The notes below the pieces were generated by a model. It was not told where the DNA came from, did not search any database, and saw only the letters and a program-made list of their open reading frames with translations. Positions 5,869 through 52,142 of a stretch of DNA of 64,000 nt are shown here, in pieces. Source of the stretch: Vicinamibacterales bacterium (GTDB lineage Bacteria; Acidobacteriota; Vicinamibacteria; Vicinamibacterales; 2-12-FULL-66-21); NCBI GenBank assembly GCA_035491715.1, contig DATJKH010000140.1, positions 2,071 through 66,070 of the forward strand, written 5' to 3'. Within the stretch, counting starts at the first letter, position 1, and each line of letters opens with the position of its first letter. Made by a program: the position numbers and the translations under genes.

Positions 5869-6660
5869 ATGCACGAAGCGGTCAGCGACATCCTCCTCGA
5901 ACGATCGCGCGAATCCGATCGCGTCGGACAGATGATGCTGATCTCGTCGCTTGCGCACGCCGTTCTCCTTGCGGCGCTTGTCGTCATGCCGGCGAATTGG
6001 CGTACATCATCGAAATCGACCGACGTGATTCCGATGACTATTACGCTGAGCAGCGGCGGCGGCCCGGACACCGGTGGGCGCACGCCGATCTCCACGAGTC
6101 CGGTGCAGGAAGTCGCGGCGACGACCAAACCGGCGCCAGTCGCGCCACCCGTATCCAAACCGCCTGAGATGGTTGCGCCGGAGCGGACGGCCAAGCCGGT
6201 CGCAAAGACGCCGCCGAAGACGGAGAAGCCCGTCGACAAATCAACGGCGCGGAAGCCGACGACAGGGCCGGAAGTCAGAACCGGCGATGCGCGCGTCGAG
6301 GGAGGGGCGCCGATCCCGTTCGGAGGATTGACGCGTCCGGCTGGTGCGAGTTCGGTTGGCGCCTCGGCAACGACCGACTATGCGAATTTCTGCTGTCCGG
6401 AGTATCTGATCAAGATACTGGACATCATCAAGCGAAACTGGAATTCGAATCAGGGCGCCAATGGCCAGGTCGGTGTGAAGTTTACTATCCGTCGAGACGG
6501 AACGATCACGGCGGTAGAACTGGAGCAGCCGAGCCAGATCTCGCTGCTCGACCTGGAGTCGCAGCGGGCGTTGCTGAAGACACGAAATCTACAACCCTTA
6601 CCGCGTGAGTTTCCGGAAAACGCGCTCACGATTCATCTGGTCTTTGATTACCATCGTTGA
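5869..6660 (+). CDS. TolA/TonB-family energy-transducer protein in the tolA position
   Basis: 263 aa. N-terminal TM (MMLISSLAHAVLLAALVV), Pro/Lys/Thr-rich spacer, TonB_C-like C-terminal domain. Sits between tolR and tolB. Confidence 0.75.
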   Translation: MHEAVSDILLERSRESDRVGQMMLISSLAHAVLLAALVVMPANWRTSSKSTDVIPMTITLSSGGGPDTGGRTPISTSPVQEVAATTKPAPVAPPVSKPPEMVAPERTAKPVAKTPPKTEKPVDKSTARKPTTGPEVRTGDARVEGGAPIPFGGLTRPAGASSVGASATTDYANFCCPEYLIKILDIIKRNWNSNQGANGQVGVKFTIRRDGTITAVELEQPSQISLLDLESQRALLKTRNLQPLPREFPENALTIHLVFDYHR

Positions 6661-10040: not shown

Positions 10041-10048
10041 CGAAGCCT

Positions 10049-10083
10049 CAATTCACCATCACCAATTCACCAACTCACCAGTT
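10049..10083 (-). repeat. One-armed short-period tandem array (CACCAA/TCACCA units) ending 8 nt before the ssb ATG
   Basis: Sequence caattcaccatcaccaattcaccaactcaccagtt. Its last 17 nt recur exactly at 59176..59192. Confidence 0.65.
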
Positions 10084-10105
10084 AACAAGAGTCGCGCCAT
10101 TGTGT

Positions 10106-15581: not shown

Positions 15582-15587
15582 AAAGAA

Positions 15588-15680
15588 AGCTTCCAGCTCC
15601 CAGCTGTCAGCTTCCAGCTCACATTACTCGCAGCGTCCGCGTTCAGCAGCTGGTAGCCGGAAGCGGGAAGCTGGAACCTG
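15588..15680 (-). repeat. Heptad-periodic palindromic element (TNCCAGC units) between rpoN and hpf
   Basis: Plus-strand arm agcTTCCAGC TCCCAGC TGTCAGC TTCCAGC TCAC, ~21-nt loop, then the inverse arm CAGCAGCTGGTAGCCGGAAGCGGGAAGCTGGAACCTG. Confidence 0.8.
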
Positions 15681-15691
15681 ACACGTGAAGC

Positions 15692-17893: not shown

Positions 17894-20101
17894 CTATCGC
17901 GTCTCCGTCGGACACGCGATTGACGTCGCCACAGATCTGATTAGGTTGTTTCCGGTCATCGTGATGCTGTCGACGGCGCGCTGGAATTTGAGGACGGACC
18001 CGACCGACTTCTTGCAGTCGGGTGGCGCGATTTCGACAGCTTCGACCGGTGTTCCGGTCATGTGATACGTTTCGTCGCGGGCCAGATACGTCACACGGGC
18101 GCCAGTGGCCACGCGGCCGCCTTCCTTGACCACCACCGAACCATTCGCGCCATAGCCTTCGACGCGCTCGAGCTCATTGACGTCCTTCTTCATAAACAGC
18201 TCGAGCTTTTCGGCCGCGACGTCCCCCTGTGAACCGATCAGGTGCGCCTTGGTGGTGTAGGTCGCCAGACGTTTCGCGTCGTCGTACAAAAATGTTTCCG
18301 ATTCTCCAGTTGACTTCGTGCTCTTGCGCACATTGGTCTTCGGATCGACGTCGTCCATCATCATTTCGGTATGCACGTTGACGCGAGCTTCCAGGTTGCC
18401 GGTCTTATCGTCAACCACGATGGTGTCGGCGTTCACTTTGGTGACTCCCTGCCACAACCGGGAATTTCCAACGTAGACGGCGCGGCCTGCCAGCCCATCG
18501 TAGTCGAGCCGGTTGGACGTGACGGTGACGGGTTGGTCCTGCTGGAGCAGCGACGGGACGTGTGTGTCCGAACCGGATCGGTTCGCCGGGGTCTGACCCT
18601 GGTCTGACCCCGGTTTGACCCCGGTCTGACCCCGGTCTGGCCCCTTCTGCGGCAGCATGGACGTTCGCACTTTCGTGTCCGCTTTCAGCTTCCGCGTTCC
18701 AATCGAGAACTCGATCGTTCGCGCTTCGACGGTGACACGCCCGTCGCTCACCCGCGGGGCCGGCGGACCCGGATCCTGCGATGGCGACAGATCGATCTGG
18801 TCTTTGTCGACATGGTACAAGCCGTGAGTCGAGTCGGCCACGACCTGCGGACCGTCGGTGAAGTGCACGTTGCCGCGAAAGTCTGCCTGTTCGACCGCGC
18901 CAAACCCCGGCTTGGTCGTCACGATCAGGGTCATCGCGCGGGCCTGCCGATCGATCGCCGGCAGAGTGCCGCGTGCCGCGCGGATCTCGCGATAGTCGAC
19001 ATTGCCGCCAAACGTTGCGTTCTGCAGCCCCGTTCCCGGTGCGCCGGTGGCGTTCAAAGTCGCTGAACGAATCCGCTTTGCGGGTGAATCGCCGTCGGGC
19101 GGCAGGTCCACCTGGACGTTCTCCATCGCGTCGAGATTGGTCAGCGTCTTGCCATCTGGCGACATCGTCAGGTCGATCGTCTTCCCGGCGACCCGCTTCC
19201 CTGCACCGTTGCCTTCACCCGGCAGCTGGACGACCGCGTTTTCGACCAGATGCGAACGCTGGAGCGTGCGGCCATCGTCGCCGTAGGTCAGGTCGATGTC
19301 GCGAGCGGTCATCGATTGCGGACCGCCGTCGCCAGAGCCGGTGATCCGGCTGTTGTTGCGGAGCTGCAGAAGCTGGACGCGCTGATCGTCCTGGGTCAGC
19401 ATGATGGTGATGTCGTCGGCGTCGATCACCCGTCCTTCGGCAACGATATGTGCGCTTCGCGTCAGCTTCAGATAGTGTTCCGCTCTCGCGAGGCCGATCG
19501 TTTCGGCCCTGGCATCGATCGCGCCCTGACCTTTCTCGTCAGGCGTCACAGTCACGTGCGGCTGCGCCAACAGCCACAGCACTTCACGGTTGAAATCGTA
19601 GGTCGCTCCGACACCGGTTCCGTGCATACGACTACGCGTGAAGGCGACCGGTCCGGGTGCCTTGAGTAGTCCGGCCTGGTGATCATAGGTCGCGTCCTCG
19701 GTCGTGACCTCGGTGCCGTCGCTCGTCAGCTTGACCGCGCCGATGTAATGCGCCGTCTTCAAATCCTCACCAGCCTGAACCACCTCCGCCTCGTTGCTTC
19801 GAACCGTGAACGGCTTTCCATTTCTCTCCGACGTGATCTCGACACCATTCACCAGACGTGTGCGACCGTCGCTGTAGCTGCACTGGCCGCCAAACTTCAT
19901 GGAGAACACAATCTTGCCGTCTTTCGACTGCTTGATTTCGCCGCCCTGCATGTTTTCGAGAATGCAGTCCTTGTCGCGCCGCTCGGGCACGGCCGCGGCA
20001 GCCGGCGGCGCCTGACGCTGACGCAAGGCGATAGCGACGATCGCGATGAAGACGATCACGAACGCGGCGATAGCGAACCGGGCCTTTTTCTGCCAAGTCA
20101 T
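17894..20101 (-). CDS. Membrane-anchored LptC/LptA (OstA-like) multi-repeat protein, putative fused LPS-transport bridge
   Basis: 735 aa. Single N-terminal TM (FAIAAFVIVFIAIVAIAL), then several OstA-like repeats of the 'A..l.Yd......a.l.GnV' kind. Occupies the lptC-lptA position upstream of lptB. Confidence 0.7.
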   Translation of the reverse strand: MTWQKKARFAIAAFVIVFIAIVAIALRQRQAPPAAAAVPERRDKDCILENMQGGEIKQSKDGKIVFSMKFGGQCSYSDGRTRLVNGVEITSERNGKPFTVRSNEAEVVQAGEDLKTAHYIGAVKLTSDGTEVTTEDATYDHQAGLLKAPGPVAFTRSRMHGTGVGATYDFNREVLWLLAQPHVTVTPDEKGQGAIDARAETIGLARAEHYLKLTRSAHIVAEGRVIDADDITIMLTQDDQRVQLLQLRNNSRITGSGDGGPQSMTARDIDLTYGDDGRTLQRSHLVENAVVQLPGEGNGAGKRVAGKTIDLTMSPDGKTLTNLDAMENVQVDLPPDGDSPAKRIRSATLNATGAPGTGLQNATFGGNVDYREIRAARGTLPAIDRQARAMTLIVTTKPGFGAVEQADFRGNVHFTDGPQVVADSTHGLYHVDKDQIDLSPSQDPGPPAPRVSDGRVTVEARTIEFSIGTRKLKADTKVRTSMLPQKGPDRGQTGVKPGSDQGQTPANRSGSDTHVPSLLQQDQPVTVTSNRLDYDGLAGRAVYVGNSRLWQGVTKVNADTIVVDDKTGNLEARVNVHTEMMMDDVDPKTNVRKSTKSTGESETFLYDDAKRLATYTTKAHLIGSQGDVAAEKLELFMKKDVNELERVEGYGANGSVVVKEGGRVATGARVTYLARDETYHMTGTPVEAVEIAPPDCKKSVGSVLKFQRAVDSITMTGNNLIRSVATSIACPTETR
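18589..18643 (-). repeat. Five tandem copies of an 11-bp unit (GGTCTGACCCC consensus) inside the LptC/LptA-like CDS
   Basis: Units ggtctgaccct ggtctgacccc ggtttgacccc ggtctgacccc ggtctggcccc. Encodes ...GPDRGQTGVKPGSDQGQTP... Confidence 0.9.
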
Positions 20102-20111
20102 CTCGGTTGAA

Positions 20112-20174
20112 GTTACCAGTTGCCAGTTACCAGTTTCCAGTTCCGACGATTGAGGAGTGGAAACTGGAAACCGG
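20112..20174 (-). repeat. Heptad-periodic palindromic element (GTTNCCA units) between recJ and the LptC/LptA-like gene
   Basis: GTTACCA GTTGCCA GTTACCA GTTTCCA GTTCCGA, 12-nt loop, then GGAAACT GGAAACC GG. Confidence 0.8.
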
Positions 20175-20180
20175 CGACTA

Positions 20181-22916: not shown

Positions 22917-25900
22917 TCAGCGTAGCTCCACCGTTCCTGTCCCACAGATCTGTTCGACCTCCGCGACGAGCTTGTCCGACGGCCGCACCCGTTGCGCGAC
23001 GTCGGCGCGCACGCGCATTGGTGGCGGACCGCTGACGTCGAGCTCCAGCGACACGCGCCGGTCACCGCGATGCCGGGCGAGTAACTCGGCGAGCGCTTCG
23101 AACATCGTCCGCGCCTGCGACCCTTGACCGAGATGAATCACCACTTCGCGCGTCGTCTTTTCTTTCAGCGATGCGATCGGCATCAGTTCCGTCGAGACGA
23201 TGCGCGCCGATTCATCGTCGCGTTCGAGCTTGCCGCGCACGAGCAGCATGGCGTCGGCTTCGATGAGCGCGCCAAACTTGCTGAAGGTTTCGGGAAAGAC
23301 GACCACTTCGACCGCGCCACCGACGTCGTCGAGCATGAACACCGCCATGCGTTCGCCCCGGCGCGTCTTGAGTGGACGAAGCCCGGACACAATGCCGCCA
23401 ACCCAGATGTCCGCTTCGGAAGCCGTCAAATCGGCGACGCGGCGGGCTCCGAACGTCTTCAATTCTTCGCTAAAGCGATCGAGCGGATGGCCGCTCATAT
23501 ACAGGCCGAGCGCTTCCTTCTCACCGGCGAGCTGCTGGATTTCGGTCCACGCCGGCGCCTCCGGCAGGGGCACTGCGGCCGTCGGGCTGTCGTTGTCGCC
23601 GCCGCCGAACAACTGGGACTGTCCCTTCTCGCGATCGCGCTGGTGACGGCCGCCGTGTTCGATTGCCCTGTCGACCGCGGCAAACAGGCGCGCCCGCCGC
23701 GCAGCGACGCTGCCGCTTGCCTGTGAGACGAGTGAATCCAGGGCACCTGCCTTGATCAAGCTCTCGAGCACCCGCTTGTTAACCAGCCGCAAATCGGCAG
23801 ATTCACACAGCGTGTAAAGCGAATCGATGCGCCCGCGCTCGCGACGGACGTTGAGCATGGACTGGATCGCACCCTCTCCGACGTTCTTGACCGCGCACAG
23901 TCCGAACCTGACGCCCCCGTTCACCACCGTGAACGCCATCTCGCTCGAGTTGATGTCGGGCGCAAAGATGGTGACGCCGAGTTCGCGGCATTCTCCAAGG
24001 TACATCGCGAGCTTGTCTGTATTGGCCGCCTCGATGGTGAGCAGCGCCGCCATGAAATGCGCGGGATAATTCGCCTTGAGGTATGCGGTCTGATATGCCA
24101 CCCACGCATACGTCGTCGAGTGCGACTTGTTGAAGCCGTAGCCGGCAAAGAATTCCATCAAGTCGAAAATCTTGGTGGCCTTCTTCTCGCTGACTCCGTT
24201 CTTGATGGCGCCGCTGACGAACGCCTCGCGCTGCTTCGCCATGACCTTGGGATCTTTCTTTCCCATGGCCTTCCGAAGGACGTCGGACTGGCCCATCGTA
24301 AAGCCCGCCAGCACGGCGGCAATGCGCATGACCTGTTCCTGGTAGGCAATGACCCCGTAGGTATCTTTGAGGATCGGCGCGAGCTGCGAGAGTTCGTATT
24401 TGACCTCGGTCTTTCCCTGCTTGCGTGAGATGTAGTCGTCGACCATCCCGCTCTTGAGCGGGCCGGGCCGATACAGCGCATTCAACGCAATCAGATCGTC
24501 GAGCCGCTCCGGCTTGGCCTTCCGGAGCAGCTCACGCATGCCGGAGCTTTCGAACTGGAACACGCCGTAGGTCTGACCATCGCAGAACAACTGGAAGGTT
24601 TTCGCGTCGTTCAACGGAATGGCGTCGATGTCGAGATCGATGGCCTCGGTGCGTCGAATCTCGTCGAGCGCATCACGAATAAGCGTGAGGGTACTCAGCC
24701 CGAGAAAATCCATCTTGAGGAGGCCCATCCGTTCGACCTCCTTCATTGCCCATTGGGTGACGATTTCGTCCTTTTGACTCTTGTAGAGAGGAACGAACTC
24801 GGTCAAGGGCCGTGGCGCGATCACGACACCCGCGGCGTGGACCGACGCATGCCGGGTCATGCCCTCGAGTCGACGCGCGACGCCGAGCAGCTCCTTGACC
24901 CGATCGTCCTTCTGCTCCATGTCTTTGAGGACGGGGTTCTCCTCGAGCGCCTTGTCGAGCGTCATGTCCAGTGCCGGCGGGATCGCTTTCGCCACGCGAT
25001 CGGCGTCGGCATACGGAATGTCCATGACGCGCGCGACATCGCGAACGACCGCTCGCGCCTTCATCGTGCCGAACGTGATGATCTGGGCGACGTTCTCGCG
25101 GCCGTACTTGCGCGTCACGTAGTCGATGACTTCGCCGCGCCGCCGCTCGCAGAAGTCAATGTCGATGTCGGGAAGCGACACGCGCTCGGGATTGAGGAAC
25201 CGTTCGAAGATCAGGTCGTACGCGATCGGGTCGACGTCGGTAATCCGAAGACAATACGCGACGAAACTGCCGGCGGCGGAACCACGGCCGGGCCCGACCG
25301 GAATGCCCTGCTCGCGGGCGTAGCGAATGAAGTCCCAGGTGATCAGGAAGTACCCCGGGTATTTCATTTTCTTGATCATGTCGACTTCGTACGTCAGCCG
25401 GCGAACGTATTCGTCAATCGTATGGCTGAGCACTCCAGCTGCCGCCAGTTCCTTGAGCCTCGGCAAACGCTGCGCGAAACCCTCTCGCACGACGTGTTCG
25501 AAGTAGTCGTCGAGCGTCGAGCCGGGAGGCACGTCGAAATTCGGCAGGTGGTTGATCGCGTTGGAGAGGTCGACATTGCACCGCTCCGCGATCCGCATCG
25601 TGTTTGCCAGCGCGTCGGGGTGGTCCTTGAATACCACCGACATTTCCTCGGCGGTCTTCAGGTAGAACTGATCGCCGTGGTATCGCAGACGCTCCGTGTC
25701 GTTGACCGATTTACCAGTGCCGATGCACAGCAGCACATCGTGCGGTTTGAAGTCCGAGTTCTGGAGATAATGCACGTCGTTGGTCGCGACCAGCGACAGG
25801 CCCAGGTCCCTTGCGATCGGGAGCAGCCCGGTATTGACGACCGTCTGCTCGTCGATCCCCTGATACTGCATCTCGAGGAAGAAATTCTTCGCACCGAGAA

Positions 25901-26393: not shown

Positions 26394-26394
26394 A

Positions 26395-26467
26395 CTCAAT
26401 GTTCAATGTTCAATGTTCGATGTCCAATGGCGACCGCGATGCATTGCACATTAAACAGTGAGCATGG
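26395..26467 (-). repeat. Heptad-periodic palindromic element (TNCAATG units) between guaA and dnaE
   Basis: CTCAATG TTCAATG TTCAATG TTCGATG TCCAATG, loop, then GCATTGCACATTAAACAGTGAGCATGG. On the coding strand the 3' arm ...CATTGAACATTGAGT abuts the dnaE ATG. Confidence 0.85.
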
Positions 26468-26469
26468 GT

Positions 26470-41235: not shown

Positions 41236-42803
41236 CACAACTCTGTGGCTTCCGCTTTCAGGCGGAAGGACACGTGCGCGCCCTGCTCCTTGTCACCGCG
41301 CTGCTCGCGGCATCCGCCTGCTCGCACGAACGGCCAAACGGCAACGTCATCATCCTCGGCACCACCAATTCGGCAACCAACCTCGACCCCCGTGTCGGGA
41401 CGGACGAAGCCTCACAGAAGATCCATCAATTGATCTTCAACACACTGGTTCATATCGACAGCCAGTTGCGCGTCGTCCCCGAGCTGGCCGAGTCGATCGA
41501 GCATCCTGATCCGCTGACCTACATCGCGCGGCTGCGAAAGGGCGTGCTGTTTCACAACGGTCGCGAGCTGACGTCTGCGGATGTCGTCTATACGTTCCGC
41601 AGTTTTCTCGACCCGACGTTCAAGGGACGTTCGGGGGCATACCGCGTTGTCGCTGCGGTCAACGCCATCGACCCCTACGCGGTCGAATTCAAACTGAAGA
41701 ACCCGCTGAATTCATTTCCCGTCAACCTGGTGATGGGAATCGTGCAGGACGGCTCCGGCGCGGCAAACGCGCGGAAGCCGATAGGCACGGGACCCTACCG
41801 CCTGACGGAGTTCGTGCCTGACGACCACGTCGGCTTAGCCGCGTTCGATCAGCATTTCGCCGGCCGGCCGCGCAACGACGGTCTCGTTCTGAAAGTGATT
41901 CCCGACGACACTATGCGCGGGCTCGAACTACGCAAGGGCTCGGTCGATCTCATCGTCAACGACCTCTCTCCCGATATCGTCTGGCAGCTGCAGCGCGAGG
42001 GGCGTGTGCAGGTAGAAACCGCCGCGGGTACCGACTATGCCTACGTCGGTCTGAATCTCAATGATCCGGTGCTCCGCCACGTCGAGGTGCGCAAAGCGAT
42101 TGGCTATGCGATCGATCGCGATGCGATCGTCAAATACTTGCGCCGTGGATTTGCCAGTAGGGCGGTCGGCATCGTGCCACCGATGTCGTGGGCATTCGAA
42201 AAAGAGGTCTTCGATTTCACCCACGATCCGGTGAAAGCCGAGCAACTGCTCGACGCCGCCGGCTTCCGGGATCCGGACGGGTCGGGGCCGCTTCCGCGTT
42301 TTCGCGTGTCGCTGAAAACGTCGACGACGGAGGTGTATCGAATCCAAGCCGCGGCCATTCAGCATGACCTCGCGCGCGTTGGCATCGCCGTCGACGTTCG
42401 TTCATCGGAGTTCCAGACATTGTCCGCCGACGTGCTGCGCGGAAACTTTCAAATGTACACGCTCCAGTTCGTCGGCGTCACCGATCCCGACATCCTCCGG
42501 CTCGTGTATCACTCGCAGCAGGTGCCGCCAACCGGTCTCAACCGGGTGCGCTATCAAAACAACGAGGTGGATCGCCTGATCGAAGGTGCATCGGCGGCGG
42601 CCGACGATGAAGAGCGCCGGAAGCTGTATGGTCAGGCGCAGCGGCGCATTGCCGACGATGTGCCCTACATCCCGCTGTGGGACAAGACCAACGTGGCGAT
42701 TTTCCAGCCGGACATCCACGGCGTCACGCTCTCCCCCATCGCTGATTTCACGTTCCTCAAAGACGTTTACCGCCAGCCGAACGGGAGCCGTTCCGGTTCG
42801 TGA
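41232..42803 (+). CDS. ABC transporter substrate-binding lipoprotein, family 5 (peptide/nickel type)
   Basis: ORF 40899..42803 trimmed to ATG 41232, which overlaps the mutS TGA as ATGA. Lipobox LLAASAC. SBP_bac_5-like sequence throughout. Confidence 0.85.
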   Translation: MTQLCGFRFQAEGHVRALLLVTALLAASACSHERPNGNVIILGTTNSATNLDPRVGTDEASQKIHQLIFNTLVHIDSQLRVVPELAESIEHPDPLTYIARLRKGVLFHNGRELTSADVVYTFRSFLDPTFKGRSGAYRVVAAVNAIDPYAVEFKLKNPLNSFPVNLVMGIVQDGSGAANARKPIGTGPYRLTEFVPDDHVGLAAFDQHFAGRPRNDGLVLKVIPDDTMRGLELRKGSVDLIVNDLSPDIVWQLQREGRVQVETAAGTDYAYVGLNLNDPVLRHVEVRKAIGYAIDRDAIVKYLRRGFASRAVGIVPPMSWAFEKEVFDFTHDPVKAEQLLDAAGFRDPDGSGPLPRFRVSLKTSTTEVYRIQAAAIQHDLARVGIAVDVRSSEFQTLSADVLRGNFQMYTLQFVGVTDPDILRLVYHSQQVPPTGLNRVRYQNNEVDRLIEGASAAADDEERRKLYGQAQRRIADDVPYIPLWDKTNVAIFQPDIHGVTLSPIADFTFLKDVYRQPNGSRSGS

Positions 42804-45625
42804 GCCCCGTTGTCCGACTCGTCGTTGGCCTGATCCTCGTGGTCGTCGGTTGCTCTTCCGCGGACGCTGCCAATCGCTACGACCCGCGGTTTCGATTTCG
42901 CACCATCACAACGCCGCATTTCGCTATTCACTTTCATCAGCGGGAGGAATCGCTCGCGCGCAGGCTGGCGACGATTGCGGAAGATGTTTTCGCTCGCGTC
43001 TCGCGTCAGATCGGCACGCCCAGCGGTCGGGTGCACGTCATTCTGGTCGACCAGCACGATATCTCGAACGGCTGGGCGACACCGGTCCCCTTCAACTTGA
43101 TCGAGATTAGCGTGGCGGCCCCTGCCGGCGACAGCACCATCGGCAACACCGATGATTGGCTTCGACTCGTCTTGGCGCACGAGTACACGCATATCGTGCA
43201 TCTCGACAAGGCTCGCGGATGGATCGGCGGGCTCCGCAACGTCTTCGGACGTGCGCCCGTGTTGTATCCGAATCTGTTTCTGCCGCTGTGGCAGATCGAA
43301 GGGATTGCGACCTACAACGAGAGTGTGTTGACGGGCGAAGGCCGGGTGCCGACCGGAGACTTCCGCATGATCGTCGATCGCGCCGCGGCGGTTCGGCGGT
43401 TCGACCCGATCGATCGGGCGAACGGTGGCCTGATCGACTGGCCAGGAGGATCGACGCAGTACGCGTACGGCGCATACTTCCATCAATACCTCGCCGACCG
43501 TTACGGCCCGGAGTCGATCGCGAAGCTGGTCGCCGAAACGTCGGGCCGCCTGCCGTACCTGGGCGCTCCGGCATTTCGCAAAGTCTTTAAACGCTCGCTG
43601 GGCGAACTCTGGGACGACTTCGAAACCGATACCAACACCCGCGCCGCGGCGCAGTCGGATAGCACCAGCCCGCGTCGCCTGACCCATCATGGATTCTCTG
43701 TCGGTGGCCCCAGCTTCGGAGAACACGGACAAATCTTGTACTCAGTGGCCAATCCACACGGATTCCCCGCCCTCATGAAGTTGAGCGGTGACGGATCGAA
43801 TCCGCGCGAAGTGACAACGAGATACCTCGGACGGCAAATCGGCGCTCGTGGTGGACGTCTCGTGTTCGATCAGTTCGAGCTCGTGCACAACGTCGGCTTA
43901 CAGTCCGACCTGTATATGGTCGGCGAGAATGGCGGCAACGTTCGACGCCTAACACATCTCGCGAGGGCGCAAGATCCGGATCTCTCGCCGGACGGAAAGA
44001 CCATCGTCTGCACGATTCAACGCGCAGATCGCCGCGATGTCGCGACCCTCGAACTCCCCGCTGCGGGTTTTGCGTCGCCCACGGTTCTGCTGTCGGACGC
44101 GGCCGTCGACTACTCGTCACCGCGATGGTCGCCTGACGGTCGATCGATTGTTGCGGAGCGTCGACGTCTCGGTGGTCCGTCAGAGATCGTCATCATTGAT
44201 GCGACGACCGGTCGCAGCCGGGCACTCGTGTCATCACATGACGCGCGTAACGTGACACCTGCGTGGTTGTCAGCGACGACGGTTCTGTTTGCGTCCGATC
44301 GCGGCGGACAGCCGTTCAGCCTCTACGCAGTTGATACCGGATCGGGCGCCGTGCGGCGTCTGAACGGCACCGGTTCGTCGGCGCAATCGCCCGCTGTGTC
44401 GCCTGATGGTGAGACGCTGCTTTTCGTTGGCTACACGGCAGACGGGTACGATCTGTTCACCATTCCGCTGACGTCGGCGTCGTGGACAAACGTGGACTCG
44501 ACACCACGTTCTGGTCCGTCATCGCAGGTTGAGCCGTCGCCGCCGATCGACACGAATGCGATCAGCGATACCGTCTATCGTCCGTGGCGAACTCTCGCTC
44601 CGCAGTCCTGGCTGCCGATCGTTGAATCCGACTCCGGCGAGTTGGCGGTCGGCGCGGAGACGGGGGCGAACGATGCCCTCGGCCGACACGCATATGACGC
44701 GACCGTCGCCTGGGCGTCGTCGAGAGCGCGTCCCGACTGGTTGGTCGCCTACGGCTACGATCGATGGTGGCCGACCTTGTTCGCCAGTGTGTCGGACGAC
44801 ACCGATCCATGGCGCGGTGGCGAGATTCGAACGCGTGAGGTCAACGCCGGGACGCTGTTCACCGTCGCGCGCGTCCGATGGTCGCAGACGGCACTGACGG
44901 CGCTCAATCTGTCCGACGACACCTTCTCCTGTGATGTGTGCACCGACCGTCCGGCACAGGATGTCGTCCAGCGCGGCGCAATTCGGCTGGGCTGGAATTT
45001 CGTGAATGCAAAAAGCTACGGCTACTCCGTCACTCGCGAGTCGGGAACTGCCGTTCGAGTGACCTGGGAGAATGCGCCGGAAGCGCTTGGCTCGGACGCC
45101 TCATCGAGCTCGATCACGATCGACACGAGAGCGTACGGTCAACTCGGTCCGCGTCATGCAGCCATCGCGGCTCGATTGGCCGGCGCATCGTCATGGGGAG
45201 ACGAGCATGCGCGCCGCGTCTTCAGCGCCGCAGGTTCGGACGCGGCCCCGGCTTTTTTTGATTTTGGCCGAAGCGCTGTCGGGTTGCTTCGAGGTTTCGA
45301 CTCCGATACGGTCATCGGCAGTCGCGCGGCAGTTGCCAATCTCGACTACCGCTTTCCCGTGCGGTATATCCAGCGCGGCTCTGGCACGATTCCATTGTTC
45401 CTTCGCACGATCCATTCGGCGGTTTTTGCCGATGCCGCCAACGCGTGGAACGACACCTTCCGCTGGAACGATGTCCGTATTTCCGCGGGTGCCGAGCTCT
45501 CGGTCGACACGGTGATCGGTTTTGGACTTCCGCTTTCGTTCAGCGCCGGTGTCGCATGGCGCCACGATCCGGTGGGAACGCAGGACGGAGTTGCGGTGTT
45601 CGGGAGGATTGGACGGGCGTTCTAG
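42800..45625 (+). CDS. Multidomain envelope protein: HExxH region + PD40 (TolB-like) repeats + C-terminal beta-barrel-like domain ending in Phe
   Basis: 941 aa. Signal/lipobox LVVVGCSS, LAHEYTHIVH, PD40 motifs (DLSPDGKT, RWSPDGRS, AVSPDGET), alternating-hydrophobic C-terminus ...VAVFGRIGRAF. GTGA overlap with the upstream SBP gene. Confidence 0.65.
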   Translation: MSPVVRLVVGLILVVVGCSSADAANRYDPRFRFRTITTPHFAIHFHQREESLARRLATIAEDVFARVSRQIGTPSGRVHVILVDQHDISNGWATPVPFNLIEISVAAPAGDSTIGNTDDWLRLVLAHEYTHIVHLDKARGWIGGLRNVFGRAPVLYPNLFLPLWQIEGIATYNESVLTGEGRVPTGDFRMIVDRAAAVRRFDPIDRANGGLIDWPGGSTQYAYGAYFHQYLADRYGPESIAKLVAETSGRLPYLGAPAFRKVFKRSLGELWDDFETDTNTRAAAQSDSTSPRRLTHHGFSVGGPSFGEHGQILYSVANPHGFPALMKLSGDGSNPREVTTRYLGRQIGARGGRLVFDQFELVHNVGLQSDLYMVGENGGNVRRLTHLARAQDPDLSPDGKTIVCTIQRADRRDVATLELPAAGFASPTVLLSDAAVDYSSPRWSPDGRSIVAERRRLGGPSEIVIIDATTGRSRALVSSHDARNVTPAWLSATTVLFASDRGGQPFSLYAVDTGSGAVRRLNGTGSSAQSPAVSPDGETLLFVGYTADGYDLFTIPLTSASWTNVDSTPRSGPSSQVEPSPPIDTNAISDTVYRPWRTLAPQSWLPIVESDSGELAVGAETGANDALGRHAYDATVAWASSRARPDWLVAYGYDRWWPTLFASVSDDTDPWRGGEIRTREVNAGTLFTVARVRWSQTALTALNLSDDTFSCDVCTDRPAQDVVQRGAIRLGWNFVNAKSYGYSVTRESGTAVRVTWENAPEALGSDASSSSITIDTRAYGQLGPRHAAIAARLAGASSWGDEHARRVFSAAGSDAAPAFFDFGRSAVGLLRGFDSDTVIGSRAAVANLDYRFPVRYIQRGSGTIPLFLRTIHSAVFADAANAWNDTFRWNDVRISAGAELSVDTVIGFGLPLSFSAGVAWRHDPVGTQDGVAVFGRIGRAF

Positions 45626-45722
45626 CCATGTCCAATGCTCAATGTTCAATGTCCAATGTTCAACGACGTTGCGCATTAAGATTGAGCATCGAGCATTGGA
45701 CATTGGAACATTGAACATTGAT
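45626..45722 (+). repeat. Heptad-periodic palindromic element (TNCAATG units) filling the whole gap up to the speB ATG
   Basis: ccatg TCCAATG CTCAATG TTCAATG TCCAATG TTCAACG acgttgcg CATTAAG ATTGAGC ATCGAGC ATTGGAC ATTGGAA CATTGAA CATTGAT, immediately followed by ATG. Confidence 0.9.
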
Positions 45723-46613
45723 ATGAATTTCCCTTTCACCTACGACCATGGCGCGCCGATGGCCTTCGGCGGCGCCATGCCGACGATGCGCTCGTTTGAC
45801 GATTCGCGCGCGGTGATTCTGCCGGTTCCTGTCGATCGAACGACTTCTTACGTCTCAGGCACGCGCAACGGACCGCGAGAAATCATCGAGGCGTCGTCGC
45901 ACATGGAGTTGTGGGACGAAGAGATCGGTGCCGACGTCCACGACATCGGCATCTATACGCTGCCGCCGATGGAGCTGCCATTCGGCGAAATGGCGCCGCT
46001 GATGGATGAAATCCGTCGCGTCGCTTCCGAGATTCTGTCGCGCGGGAAATTCCTCGTGAGCCTCGGTGGCGAGCACTCGATCACGCCGCCGCTCGTAGAG
46101 GCGGCTGCAAGCGCCTTCAAGGGGCTGTCGGTGCTCCAGATCGATGCTCATGCGGATTTGCGCGAGTGCTACATGGGCACGCCACACAATCACGCGTGTG
46201 CGATGCGGCGGAGCCTCGAATTCGCCCGCGTGACACAAGTCGGCATTCGAAGCATGTCGACGGAAGAGGCTGAAGCGGCGCCGGGTCTCAATACGACGAT
46301 TTTTTACGACGCTCACATGCGAAAGGATCCTGCCTGGATCGACCGCGTTGTCGACACGCTGAAGGGGCCGGTTTACATAACAATCGACGTCGACGGCATG
46401 GATCCGGCGATCATGCCCGCGACCGGCACACCGGAACCCGGCGGCCTGTCGTGGTACGAGATCCTGGCGCTCCTGCGGGCAACCATCTCAAAGAGAGAGG
46501 TCGTCGCCTGCGACGTTGTCGAGTTGAGTCCGTTGCCCGGGCTGATGGCGCCCAATTTTCTGTGCGCGAAGCTGGTTTATAAGATTCTGACCTATCGGTT
46601 TGCTGGGAGGTAG
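45723..46613 (+). CDS. speB: Agmatinase (arginase/ureohydrolase family)
   Basis: ORF 45522..46613 trimmed to ATG 45723. Metal-binding blocks GGEHSIT, QIDAHADL, ITIDVDGMDP, DVVELSP. Confidence 0.88.
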   Translation: MNFPFTYDHGAPMAFGGAMPTMRSFDDSRAVILPVPVDRTTSYVSGTRNGPREIIEASSHMELWDEEIGADVHDIGIYTLPPMELPFGEMAPLMDEIRRVASEILSRGKFLVSLGGEHSITPPLVEAAASAFKGLSVLQIDAHADLRECYMGTPHNHACAMRRSLEFARVTQVGIRSMSTEEAEAAPGLNTTIFYDAHMRKDPAWIDRVVDTLKGPVYITIDVDGMDPAIMPATGTPEPGGLSWYEILALLRATISKREVVACDVVELSPLPGLMAPNFLCAKLVYKILTYRFAGR

Positions 46614-46615
46614 TC

Positions 46616-46643
46616 CGGGATCCGGTCCGCAAAACGGATCCCG
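46616..46643 (+). terminator. 9-bp hairpin CGGGATCCG-10nt-CGGATCCCG just after the speB stop
   Basis: Read directly. No strong T-tract. Confidence 0.4.
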
Positions 46644-46684
46644 CAAGTATCCGCTCCCCCTGTATACCTGCTATACTCCCCGCC

Positions 46685-52040: not shown

Positions 52041-52042
52041 AA

Positions 52043-52126
52043 GTTTCCAGTTTCCAGTTCCCAGTTTCCAGTTCCCAGCAGTACATCTCTGCACTGGCAA
52101 CTGGAGACTGGAAACTGGCAACTGAC
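52043..52126 (-). repeat. Heptad-periodic palindromic element (GTTNCCA units) between acyP and apt
   Basis: GTTTCCA GTTTCCA GTTCCCA GTTTCCA GTTCCCA g, 13-nt loop, then CACTGGCAACTGGAGACTGGAAACTGGCAACTGAC. About 28 of 31 positions are complementary in the best register. Confidence 0.9.
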
Positions 52127-52142
52127 ACGCAACTTCAAGCCA

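Follow-up and report, generated by a model that had tools for sequence, protein, structure and literature searches.

What is a palindrome built of 7-nt units doing between two genes of a Vicinamibacterales bacterium, where it takes up every base from the stop codon of the first gene to the start codon of the second? The question arises at positions 45626-45722 of the window, i.e. the whole stretch of 64,000 nucleotides that was analysed, where the following features succeed one another:

45623-45625, plus strand: stop codon TAG ending the 941-aa PD40/Omp85-like gene (42800-45625), 1 nt ahead of the first paired base of the stem
45626-45665, plus strand: 5' arm, CCATG followed by TCCAATG, CTCAATG, TTCAATG, TCCAATG and TTCAACG (units at 45631-45665)
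45666-45673, plus strand: centre or loop, ACGTTGCG, 8 nt, G+C-rich and without periodicity
45674-45722, plus strand: 3' arm, seven inverse units, CATTAAG, ATTGAGC, ATCGAGC, ATTGGAC, ATTGGAA, CATTGAA and CATTGAT
45723-45725, plus strand: start codon ATG of an arginase-family (speB-like) gene (45723-46613), a paired part of the basal helix when the RNA fold is predicted

About five TNCAATG units, the 8-nt loop and about seven CATTGNA units make up the element, which is flush with both codons, namely the TAG of the 941-aa gene on its 5' side and the ATG of the speB-like gene on its 3' side (frame checked); a preliminary description had noticed a heptad palindrome filling this gap and the sequence is exactly as claimed there. 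The 3' arm covers the entire zone where a ribosome-binding site would be expected and continues directly into ATGAATTTCCC. Both arms are assigned period 7 by TRF (5.1 and 5.7 copies), and 7 is the only short period enriched across the 64-kb window in a period scan. An assembly artefact is excluded by 16 independent assemblies of soil metagenomes that carry the same or nearly the same sequence, and the core observation at this locus is a real and highly non-random feature. On the other side of the arginase-family gene, the gap at 46614-46684 holds a short hairpin of GGGATCC-type pieces (CCGGGATCCGG...CGGATCCCG), which resembles the CGGGATC/GGATCCC heptad family of two of the compared loci (L007, at 23383-23440, and L044).

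Folded as RNA, the 111-nt region reaches -44.7 kcal/mol at 37 °C with 40 pairs, which corresponds to z = -6.84 relative to dinucleotide-shuffled controls, none of the 200 shuffles folding as well; the opposite strand is nearly as good (-43.2 kcal/mol, z = -6.31). Complementarity between the arms peaks at each 7-nt register step, bearing out the idea that they can also pair in shifted registers, and eight overlapping inverted-repeat pairings link them. In the predicted fold, the AUG of the speB-like gene is paired with CAU at 45627-45629, beginning 2 nt past the UAG, and the region just upstream of the start is buried in a strong hairpin, in line with the occlusion of the start region that had been proposed; no GGAG-type motif lies outside the stem, as had also been remarked of Shine-Dalgarno sequences in general.

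A strong hairpin burying a start region invites the reading first put forward, that of an adaptive RNA gate, i.e. a hairpin under selection for ending or insulating transcription and for blocking translation initiation until temperature or a protein opens it. At 55 °C, however, the fold is still predicted at -27.8 kcal/mol with the AUG paired, and a stem stable to at least 55 °C, far above the range of RNA thermometers, rules out a thermometer-like gate. Termination fares no better, as a terminator consensus scan of 45400-45900 returned 0 terminator-like sites and the U-tract is absent, so an intrinsic (Rho-independent) terminator is not supported; no sigma-70 promoter consensus was found in the same interval. 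Searched at the gathering threshold, Rfam gave a tRNA-Arg as its sole match in the whole window; a riboswitch or another curated RNA family was discarded since no covariance model matched at the element. In a permutation of unit order, moreover, the two arms at 45626-45722 were not better matched in mirror order than when permuted (z = -1.5), and the same holds for other short elements.

Is the locus then unique in the window? The preliminary description had listed four other junctions of co-directional genes with the same architecture, and a fifth, degenerate array can be set beside them:

15582-15691, minus strand: AGCTGRN / NYCAGCT units, between the rpoN stop (15692) and the hpf start (15581)
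20102-20180, minus strand: AACTGGN / NCCAGTT units, between the recJ stop (20181) and an LptC/LptA-like start (20101)
26394-26469, minus strand: TNCAATG units, between the guaA stop (26470) and the dnaE start (26393), with the AUG paired with CAU shortly past the stop
52041-52127, no strand assigned: AGTTYCC / ACTGGMA units, at a divergent junction, 1 nt from a minus-strand phosphoribosyltransferase start (52040)
10045-10085, minus strand: GGTGAATT-like repeats of period 7-8, degenerate and unpaired, just ahead of the ssb start (10040) and ending 4 nt from the start codon

All four sites exist and fold far better than shuffles (z from -3.8 to -6.3), but only three are co-directional, the one at 52042 being divergent and standing 42 nt upstream of a plus-strand uricase-like gene (start 52170). 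The CAU that pairs with the AUG lies 2-4 nt past the upstream stop in both the speB-like and the dnaE elements. The units, which had been taken for three unrelated sequences, prove to be related: written in one phase, CATTGRN, AACTGGN and AGCTGRN are 1-2 substitutions apart. What had been said to be conserved, namely position and period-7 palindromy but not sequence, is confirmed by differing units at orthologous junctions, the units at the rpoN-hpf junction being of the AGCT type in the window and of the AGTT type in L007, the nearest species. As for the array at 10045-10085, composed of CAATTCAC, CATCAC, CAATTCAC again and CAACTCAC, it probably belongs to the same family, as a copy that has decayed or has a single arm.

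Other repeats of the window were noted along the way. An array of period 11 (GGTCTGACCCC x5) lies at 18585-18647 inside the 735-aa LptC/LptA-like ORF (17894-20101); its unit is itself palindromic (GGGGTC.GACCCC), BLAST alignments of the window to L085 and L009 break exactly there, and L085 has a variant with an 18-nt period (GGGGTCAGACCCCAAACC). Motifs similar to GGGGTC...GACCCC also form the loops of some heptad palindromes of L009 and are present in a small hairpin upstream of dnaE in L013 and L046. Separately, the convergent gene pairs of the window (9601/9609, 35395/35424, 50643/50659, 53300/53304 and 59174/59194) are parted by only 3-28 nt, which leaves no space for conventional terminator hairpins.

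To what extent this architecture characterises the lineage was examined in 80 species-level Vicinamibacterales loci of about 23 kb each, gathered by a DnaE-based scan; together with the window they amount to 81 loci and 1.5 Mb. By the same scan, the window itself falls among uncultured Vicinamibacterales, in subdivision 6 of the Acidobacteriota. Gene calls were made with a rough caller of our own; a first codon-bias caller, which missed many genes, and a first start-refinement rule, which truncated genes, were both replaced, and start calls remain approximate. Arrays of period 7 number 170 in this set, against at most 26 for any other period. An inverted partner was found within 150 nt for 120 of 180 arrays versus none of 400 random segments, one third of the arrays being devoid of a partner arm, so one-armed arrays are common. 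By these rough gene calls, which make ~89% of the DNA coding, some 101 of 114 elements (~90%) fall between genes or at a gene edge, and elements are richer in A+T than the genome (55% vs. 66% G+C). Their lengths are continuous from 26 to ~290 nt. Density reaches 1.0 element per 10 kb where DnaE identity is at least 79% (49/53 loci) and 0.19 in more distant relatives; the former figure implies several hundred copies per genome.

Across 82 co-directional junctions, the predicted stem starts at a median of 0 nt past the stop and ends at a median of 2 nt before the start codon, and stop and start codons often belong to the first and last units themselves, e.g. TAGCTTCCAGCTTCC... and ...GGCAATCGGCAATG; pairing extends to the start codon in just 17 of the 82. 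Raw counts, i.e. 94 co-directional, 5 divergent and 2 convergent junctions, would suggest a strong co-directional preference, which was rejected as a sampling artefact, the same orthologous junctions having been counted across 80 species. Once orthologous junctions are collapsed and counted once each over the 81 loci, 10 of 78 co-directional, 4 of 22 divergent and 2 of 30 convergent junctions are occupied, a difference that is not significant; the intergenic bias expected from the preliminary description stands, but not the limitation to co-directional junctions.

Nor do the two strands differ. Folded in the sense or in the antisense direction, the elements reach the same stability (-60.1 vs. 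-59.3 kcal/mol, p = 0.35), G-U pairs are not in excess on the sense strand (298 vs. 316 on the antisense) and periodicity is equal in the stop-proximal and start-proximal arms. Because stability and G-U content are equal on both strands, there is no sign of selection on the sense RNA, which lends no support to the RNA-level role originally envisaged; to all appearances, palindromy belongs to the DNA level. Over all loci, Shine-Dalgarno-like tetramers are only slightly more frequent ahead of predicted starts than inside genes (18% vs. 13%, with rough start positions), which suggests that initiation is mostly SD-independent in the clade; given this rarity in the lineage, the absence of such a motif at 45626-45722 is not special. 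Low Shine-Dalgarno use could make initiation depend on the accessibility of the leader, and this, along with the persistence of palindromy despite turnover of the sequence, can be credited to a selected RNA gate; against it count the lack of any G-U excess or added stability on the sense strand and the close relatives that manage with overlapping genes and no element, beside the thermal, terminator, Rfam and mirror-order results above. Overall, such a gate seems quite unlikely.

A metagenome scan for (CAATGNN)x4 drew very mixed contigs (30-70% G+C), mostly with unpaired arrays of unrelated organisms, and provided no usable statistics, though it returned a few independent cases of the stop-palindrome-start arrangement (L106, L124, L147 and L153). 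On another contig (L144, 98-200), a CAATG heptad palindrome is directly followed by an array of period 9 made of CCTGGCACT units, the TGGCAC of which resembles a sigma-54 -24 box.

If the elements are a property of the DNA, how do they come and go? At four junctions of the comparison set, occupancy could be followed across species: guaA-dnaE in 26 of 69 genomes, recJ-lptC in 22 of 55, rpoN-hpf in 18 of 40 and dnaE-accA in 13 of 74. Unit families differ by species at one and the same junction (GATTGNN/NNCAATC, CAATG, GAATGCT, AACTCCG, AGCTNNN). Presence or absence varies among species with 83-94% DnaE identity; at dnaE-accA, for instance, the window has no element and an 8-nt gap, and heptad palindromes are found in L007, L008 and L009, while at recJ-lptC it is L007 that lacks an element (20-nt gap) and the window, L085 and L009 that carry heptad palindromes. 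Element-free relatives show gaps of 0-17 nt or, for guaA and dnaE, a 4-nt ATGA overlap, and the geometry in which the element makes up the whole gap results from the placing of a palindrome in a near-zero gap. These junctions also receive other palindromes, such as a G+C-rich element containing GGGGTGGGGCCCCGCGAGC upstream of dnaE in four species (L016, L043, L045 and L051) and a 240-nt palindrome without heptads at dnaE-accA in L085 (13475-13710); the recurrently occupied junctions seem to be general hotspots for palindromic inserts.

Long copies are unit-by-unit mirror images (z = 3-6), which short copies, including 45626-45722, are not. Two junctions of L033 and junctions in other species present the same terminal unit order, down to an aberrant 5-nt unit, and this common idiosyncratic order indicates, to judge from the sequences, copying or conversion between loci. 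On a much shorter time scale, six strains 99.85-99.95% identical over 20.9 kb show a single indel, i.e. one 7-nt unit missing from the 5' arm at 45626-45665 in strain L004, and ten further strains show no change at the elements at 15588 and 20111. The arrays slip by whole units without being hypervariable, and a contingency locus subject to phase variation was dismissed on the ground of this one unit indel in total among 16 near-identical strains. The only other length variant among the ten near-identical strains is a 3-nt in-frame indel at 6297-6300 in a TonB_2-domain gene (263 vs. 264 aa). In single strains, dnaE (L211, 1-2665) and ssb (L212, 15542-15973) are each called as two ORFs, reflecting either real disruption of essential genes in population variants or an assembly/consensus error.

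Such comings and goings bring to mind a selfish or neutral mobile palindrome, MITE- or REPIN-like, that would be copied by a trans-acting enzyme and play no host role, the hairpin being a by-product of heptad terminal inverted repeats. Presence and absence at orthologous junctions, recurrence of the same unit families at several junctions of one genome, the ends and odd 5-nt unit found at the same place in L033 and other species, strand symmetry, expansion in one lineage and the loss of any junction-type preference after collapsing all agree with it. The copies themselves fit less well: target-site duplication is absent at every boundary examined, no transposase adjoins any copy, lengths form a continuum from 26 to ~290 nt with no cluster at any one value, many arrays are one-armed, and the same junction holds an element in 30-45% of species with differing units. 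Among the features of MITEs, inverted ends common to non-orthologous copies are found, without boundary duplication, with continuous length and with no parent element seen. In Xanthomonas, no link between heptamer arrays and mobile elements was observed either (PMC4692102). We consider a mobile palindrome of this kind rather unlikely, if still a serious candidate. The REP/BIME/REPIN sequences of enterobacteria and pseudomonads are similarly abundant, species-specific extragenic palindromes found in operons, variably present among relatives, and their mRNA hairpins can alter the relative expression of neighbouring cistrons; a REP, however, is a single 20-40 nt palindrome whose sequence is fixed within its family and bears a GTAG-type head; RAYT transposases mobilise it, and it has no internal 7-nt periodicity. 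Membership in this class is not supported, as copies here vary in length (26-290 nt) and in unit and no common head is seen.

A closer precedent exists, and the view that the element belonged to no described class has to be given up, since inverted heptamer pairs are already described in Xanthomonas (PMC4692102; see also PMC4679880). Heptanucleotide repeats are, according to the summary of Mrazek 2007 in PMC4679880, the most abundant long simple-sequence repeats of most bacterial genomes. Xanthomonas genomes contain ~190 GGGAATC arrays each, among them 70-75 inverted pairs of the convergent type (Rehm et al. 2015, PMC4692102); most are found where neighbouring ORFs are aligned, no more than 50 bp from a start or stop codon, and no link to mobile elements was observed (PMC4692102). 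The Vicinamibacterales elements likewise consist of 7-nt units in tandem, are in excess in non-coding DNA and lie for the most part between aligned ORFs, 0-50 bp from start or stop codons with the stop sometimes overlapped, often as two inverted arrays able to form a stem-loop, without IS link, and with a unit number that varies between related species as the single or paired type is kept. They differ in that the units are not G-rich, several unit families coexist in one genome and replace one another at one junction, the host belongs to the Acidobacteriota, and whole intercistronic gaps are filled flush with both codons. Convergent same-unit arrays close together are indeed what 45626-45722 displays; G-tracts it does not have.

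This last point bears on the G-quadruplex, by which GGGNATC arrays of Xanthomonas and Nostoc have been explained. However alike the genomic behaviour (intergenic heptamers, inverted pairs, nearness to starts and stops), the TNCAATG/CATTGNA units contain no GGG or CCC run on either strand and most unit families of the clade are without GGG, so a G-quadruplex-forming repeat is refuted here by the sequence and its probability is negligible.

Cyanobacterial STRR, as they are cited from Mazel 1990 and Mrazek 2007 in PMC4679880 and PMC4692102, also have period 7, intergenic location, several units per genome and a presumed slippage origin; going by the same citations they are mostly one-directional, unlike the elements here, two thirds of which are palindromic pairs. 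Tandem 7-nt units, intergenic excess and change of copy number by whole units (at a low rate), the hallmarks of LSSR/STRR, are all found in the family. In marine Beggiatoaceae, Cyanobacteria and Bacteroidetes, TAACTGA arrays occur a few nt upstream of start codons (MacGregor 2015, PMC4679880). They share with the present family heptamer arrays that end a few nt before start codons, upstream of housekeeping genes, but have a single unit sequence in 2-6 copies and are almost never inverted (169 direct sets, 1 indirect) (PMC4679880).

For the TAACTGA repeats, it was proposed that the units are read by a protein (PMC4679880), and the heptads could by analogy be sites for a repeat-reading protein, either on RNA (S1, cold-shock or CsrA-type) or on DNA (nucleoid or regulatory), the array and not the hairpin being functional. 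Each unit does look like a spaced motif, its core of 4-5 nt being conserved and the other 2-3 positions free to vary (GATTG-NN, CAATG-NN, AGCTG-NN), and one-armed arrays stand directly upstream of starts. A single reader cannot, however, explain the many cores that coexist in one genome and swap at one junction, two thirds of the arrays have a complementary partner, so that the sites would be concealed in RNA, and no candidate protein was identified. The idea appears improbable.

The only mechanism experimentally tested for such a structure comes from the hmw1A gene of H. influenzae, where an (ATCTTTC)n hairpin in the 5'-UTR undergoes RNase III processing that affects expression (PMC12721329). 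Common to both cases is a long hairpin ahead of a start codon with a heptamer array as one of its arms, transcribed in hmw1A and predicted here (PMC12721329); in hmw1A, however, the second arm is a G-rich non-repeat and the array is perfect and phase-variable (PMC12721329), whereas both arms are imperfect repeats here and only one unit change occurred in 16 near-identical strains.

In short, the architecture is of an already described kind, namely heptanucleotide arrays including inverted pairs. What appears to be new is the host lineage, for which no literature on such repeats was found (Acidobacteria or Vicinamibacterales), the coexistence of several non-G-rich unit families that excludes the G-quadruplex explanation, the flush bracketing by stop and start codons and the repeated occupation of the same housekeeping junctions with turnover of the units.

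The reading we favour, to which we give a probability of about 50%, is that the element belongs to a genome-wide family of intergenic heptanucleotide-repeat palindromes, specific to this lineage, and that its hairpin in the transcript would couple or insulate the flanking cistrons. Each copy would comprise two arrays of a 7-nt simple-sequence repeat, inverted to each other, and the family would be made and remodelled in DNA by whole-unit slippage, by inverted duplication or arm copying, and by gain and precise loss at operon junctions. Against this reading as a whole count the equal folds of the two strands, the low share of junctions with a paired start codon (17 of 82), the third of arrays that lack a partner arm, and the fact that neither a transposase nor a target-site duplication nor a parent element was seen at the boundaries and copies examined. 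Copies would come to occupy gaps otherwise of 0-20 nt and in this way each would fill its whole gap, a tight stop-stem-start geometry being trivially expected for any palindrome in a near-zero gap.

Co-transcription with the neighbours is likely because genes overlap in relatives, and in a polycistronic transcript a stem of ~33-40 bp would form, the base of which would set the upstream stop beside the downstream start. Free 30S subunits would be excluded from the buried start region. During termination, a ribosome occupies and opens ~12-15 nt of RNA on the 3' side of the stop; at the UAG, this would melt the basal helix that holds the AUG and release the strand to which the AUG and the end of the 3' arm are bound. 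Upstream termination would in this way permit downstream initiation, with translational coupling of or re-initiation at speB as the putative result. Alternatively or in addition, RNase III, the substrates of which are stems of roughly 20 bp or more, might cut the long stem and part the two cistrons. The net outcome would be a fixed intercistronic insulator or ratio-setter rather than a switch controlled by temperature or ligand, and the periodic arms, able to re-register after gain or loss of units, would let the structure outlive its own mutation process. The element may also be simply tolerated rather than selected.

One variant goes further and is, in our estimation, unlikely: the stem could act as a coupling bridge, the ribosome that melts the basal helix at termination being handed to the start at the 3' foot and bypassing 60-290 nt. 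Plant pararetroviruses are known for a 'ribosome shunt' based on a short ORF and a stem, of which this may be a bacterial counterpart. On such a model, palindromes may be tolerated, perhaps even kept, within operons, since periodic arms would hold both feet of the stem together in any slippage register; if true, genes that overlap (ATGA) in relatives and have been pushed 100-300 nt apart would keep their coupled expression.

Whichever holds, the locus touches on a wider matter. Heptanucleotide arrays are the commonest long simple repeats in bacteria and have no known general function or generating mechanism, and the G-quadruplex, the sole explanation offered for inverted pairs (in Xanthomonas), is inapplicable to the units at 45626-45722. 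For annotation, the elements lead to over-extended start codons, and they merit recognition as a repeat class in soil metagenomes. With about 1 element per 10 kb located inside universally conserved operons, this clade of Acidobacteria is a natural test set: at junctions such as guaA-dnaE, recJ-lptC, rpoN-hpf and dnaE-accA, neighbouring species carry the element, another unit family or a gene overlap, which allows direct comparison of the effect of a 100-300 nt hairpin between coupled genes, as well as of the origin, spread and loss of the repeats.
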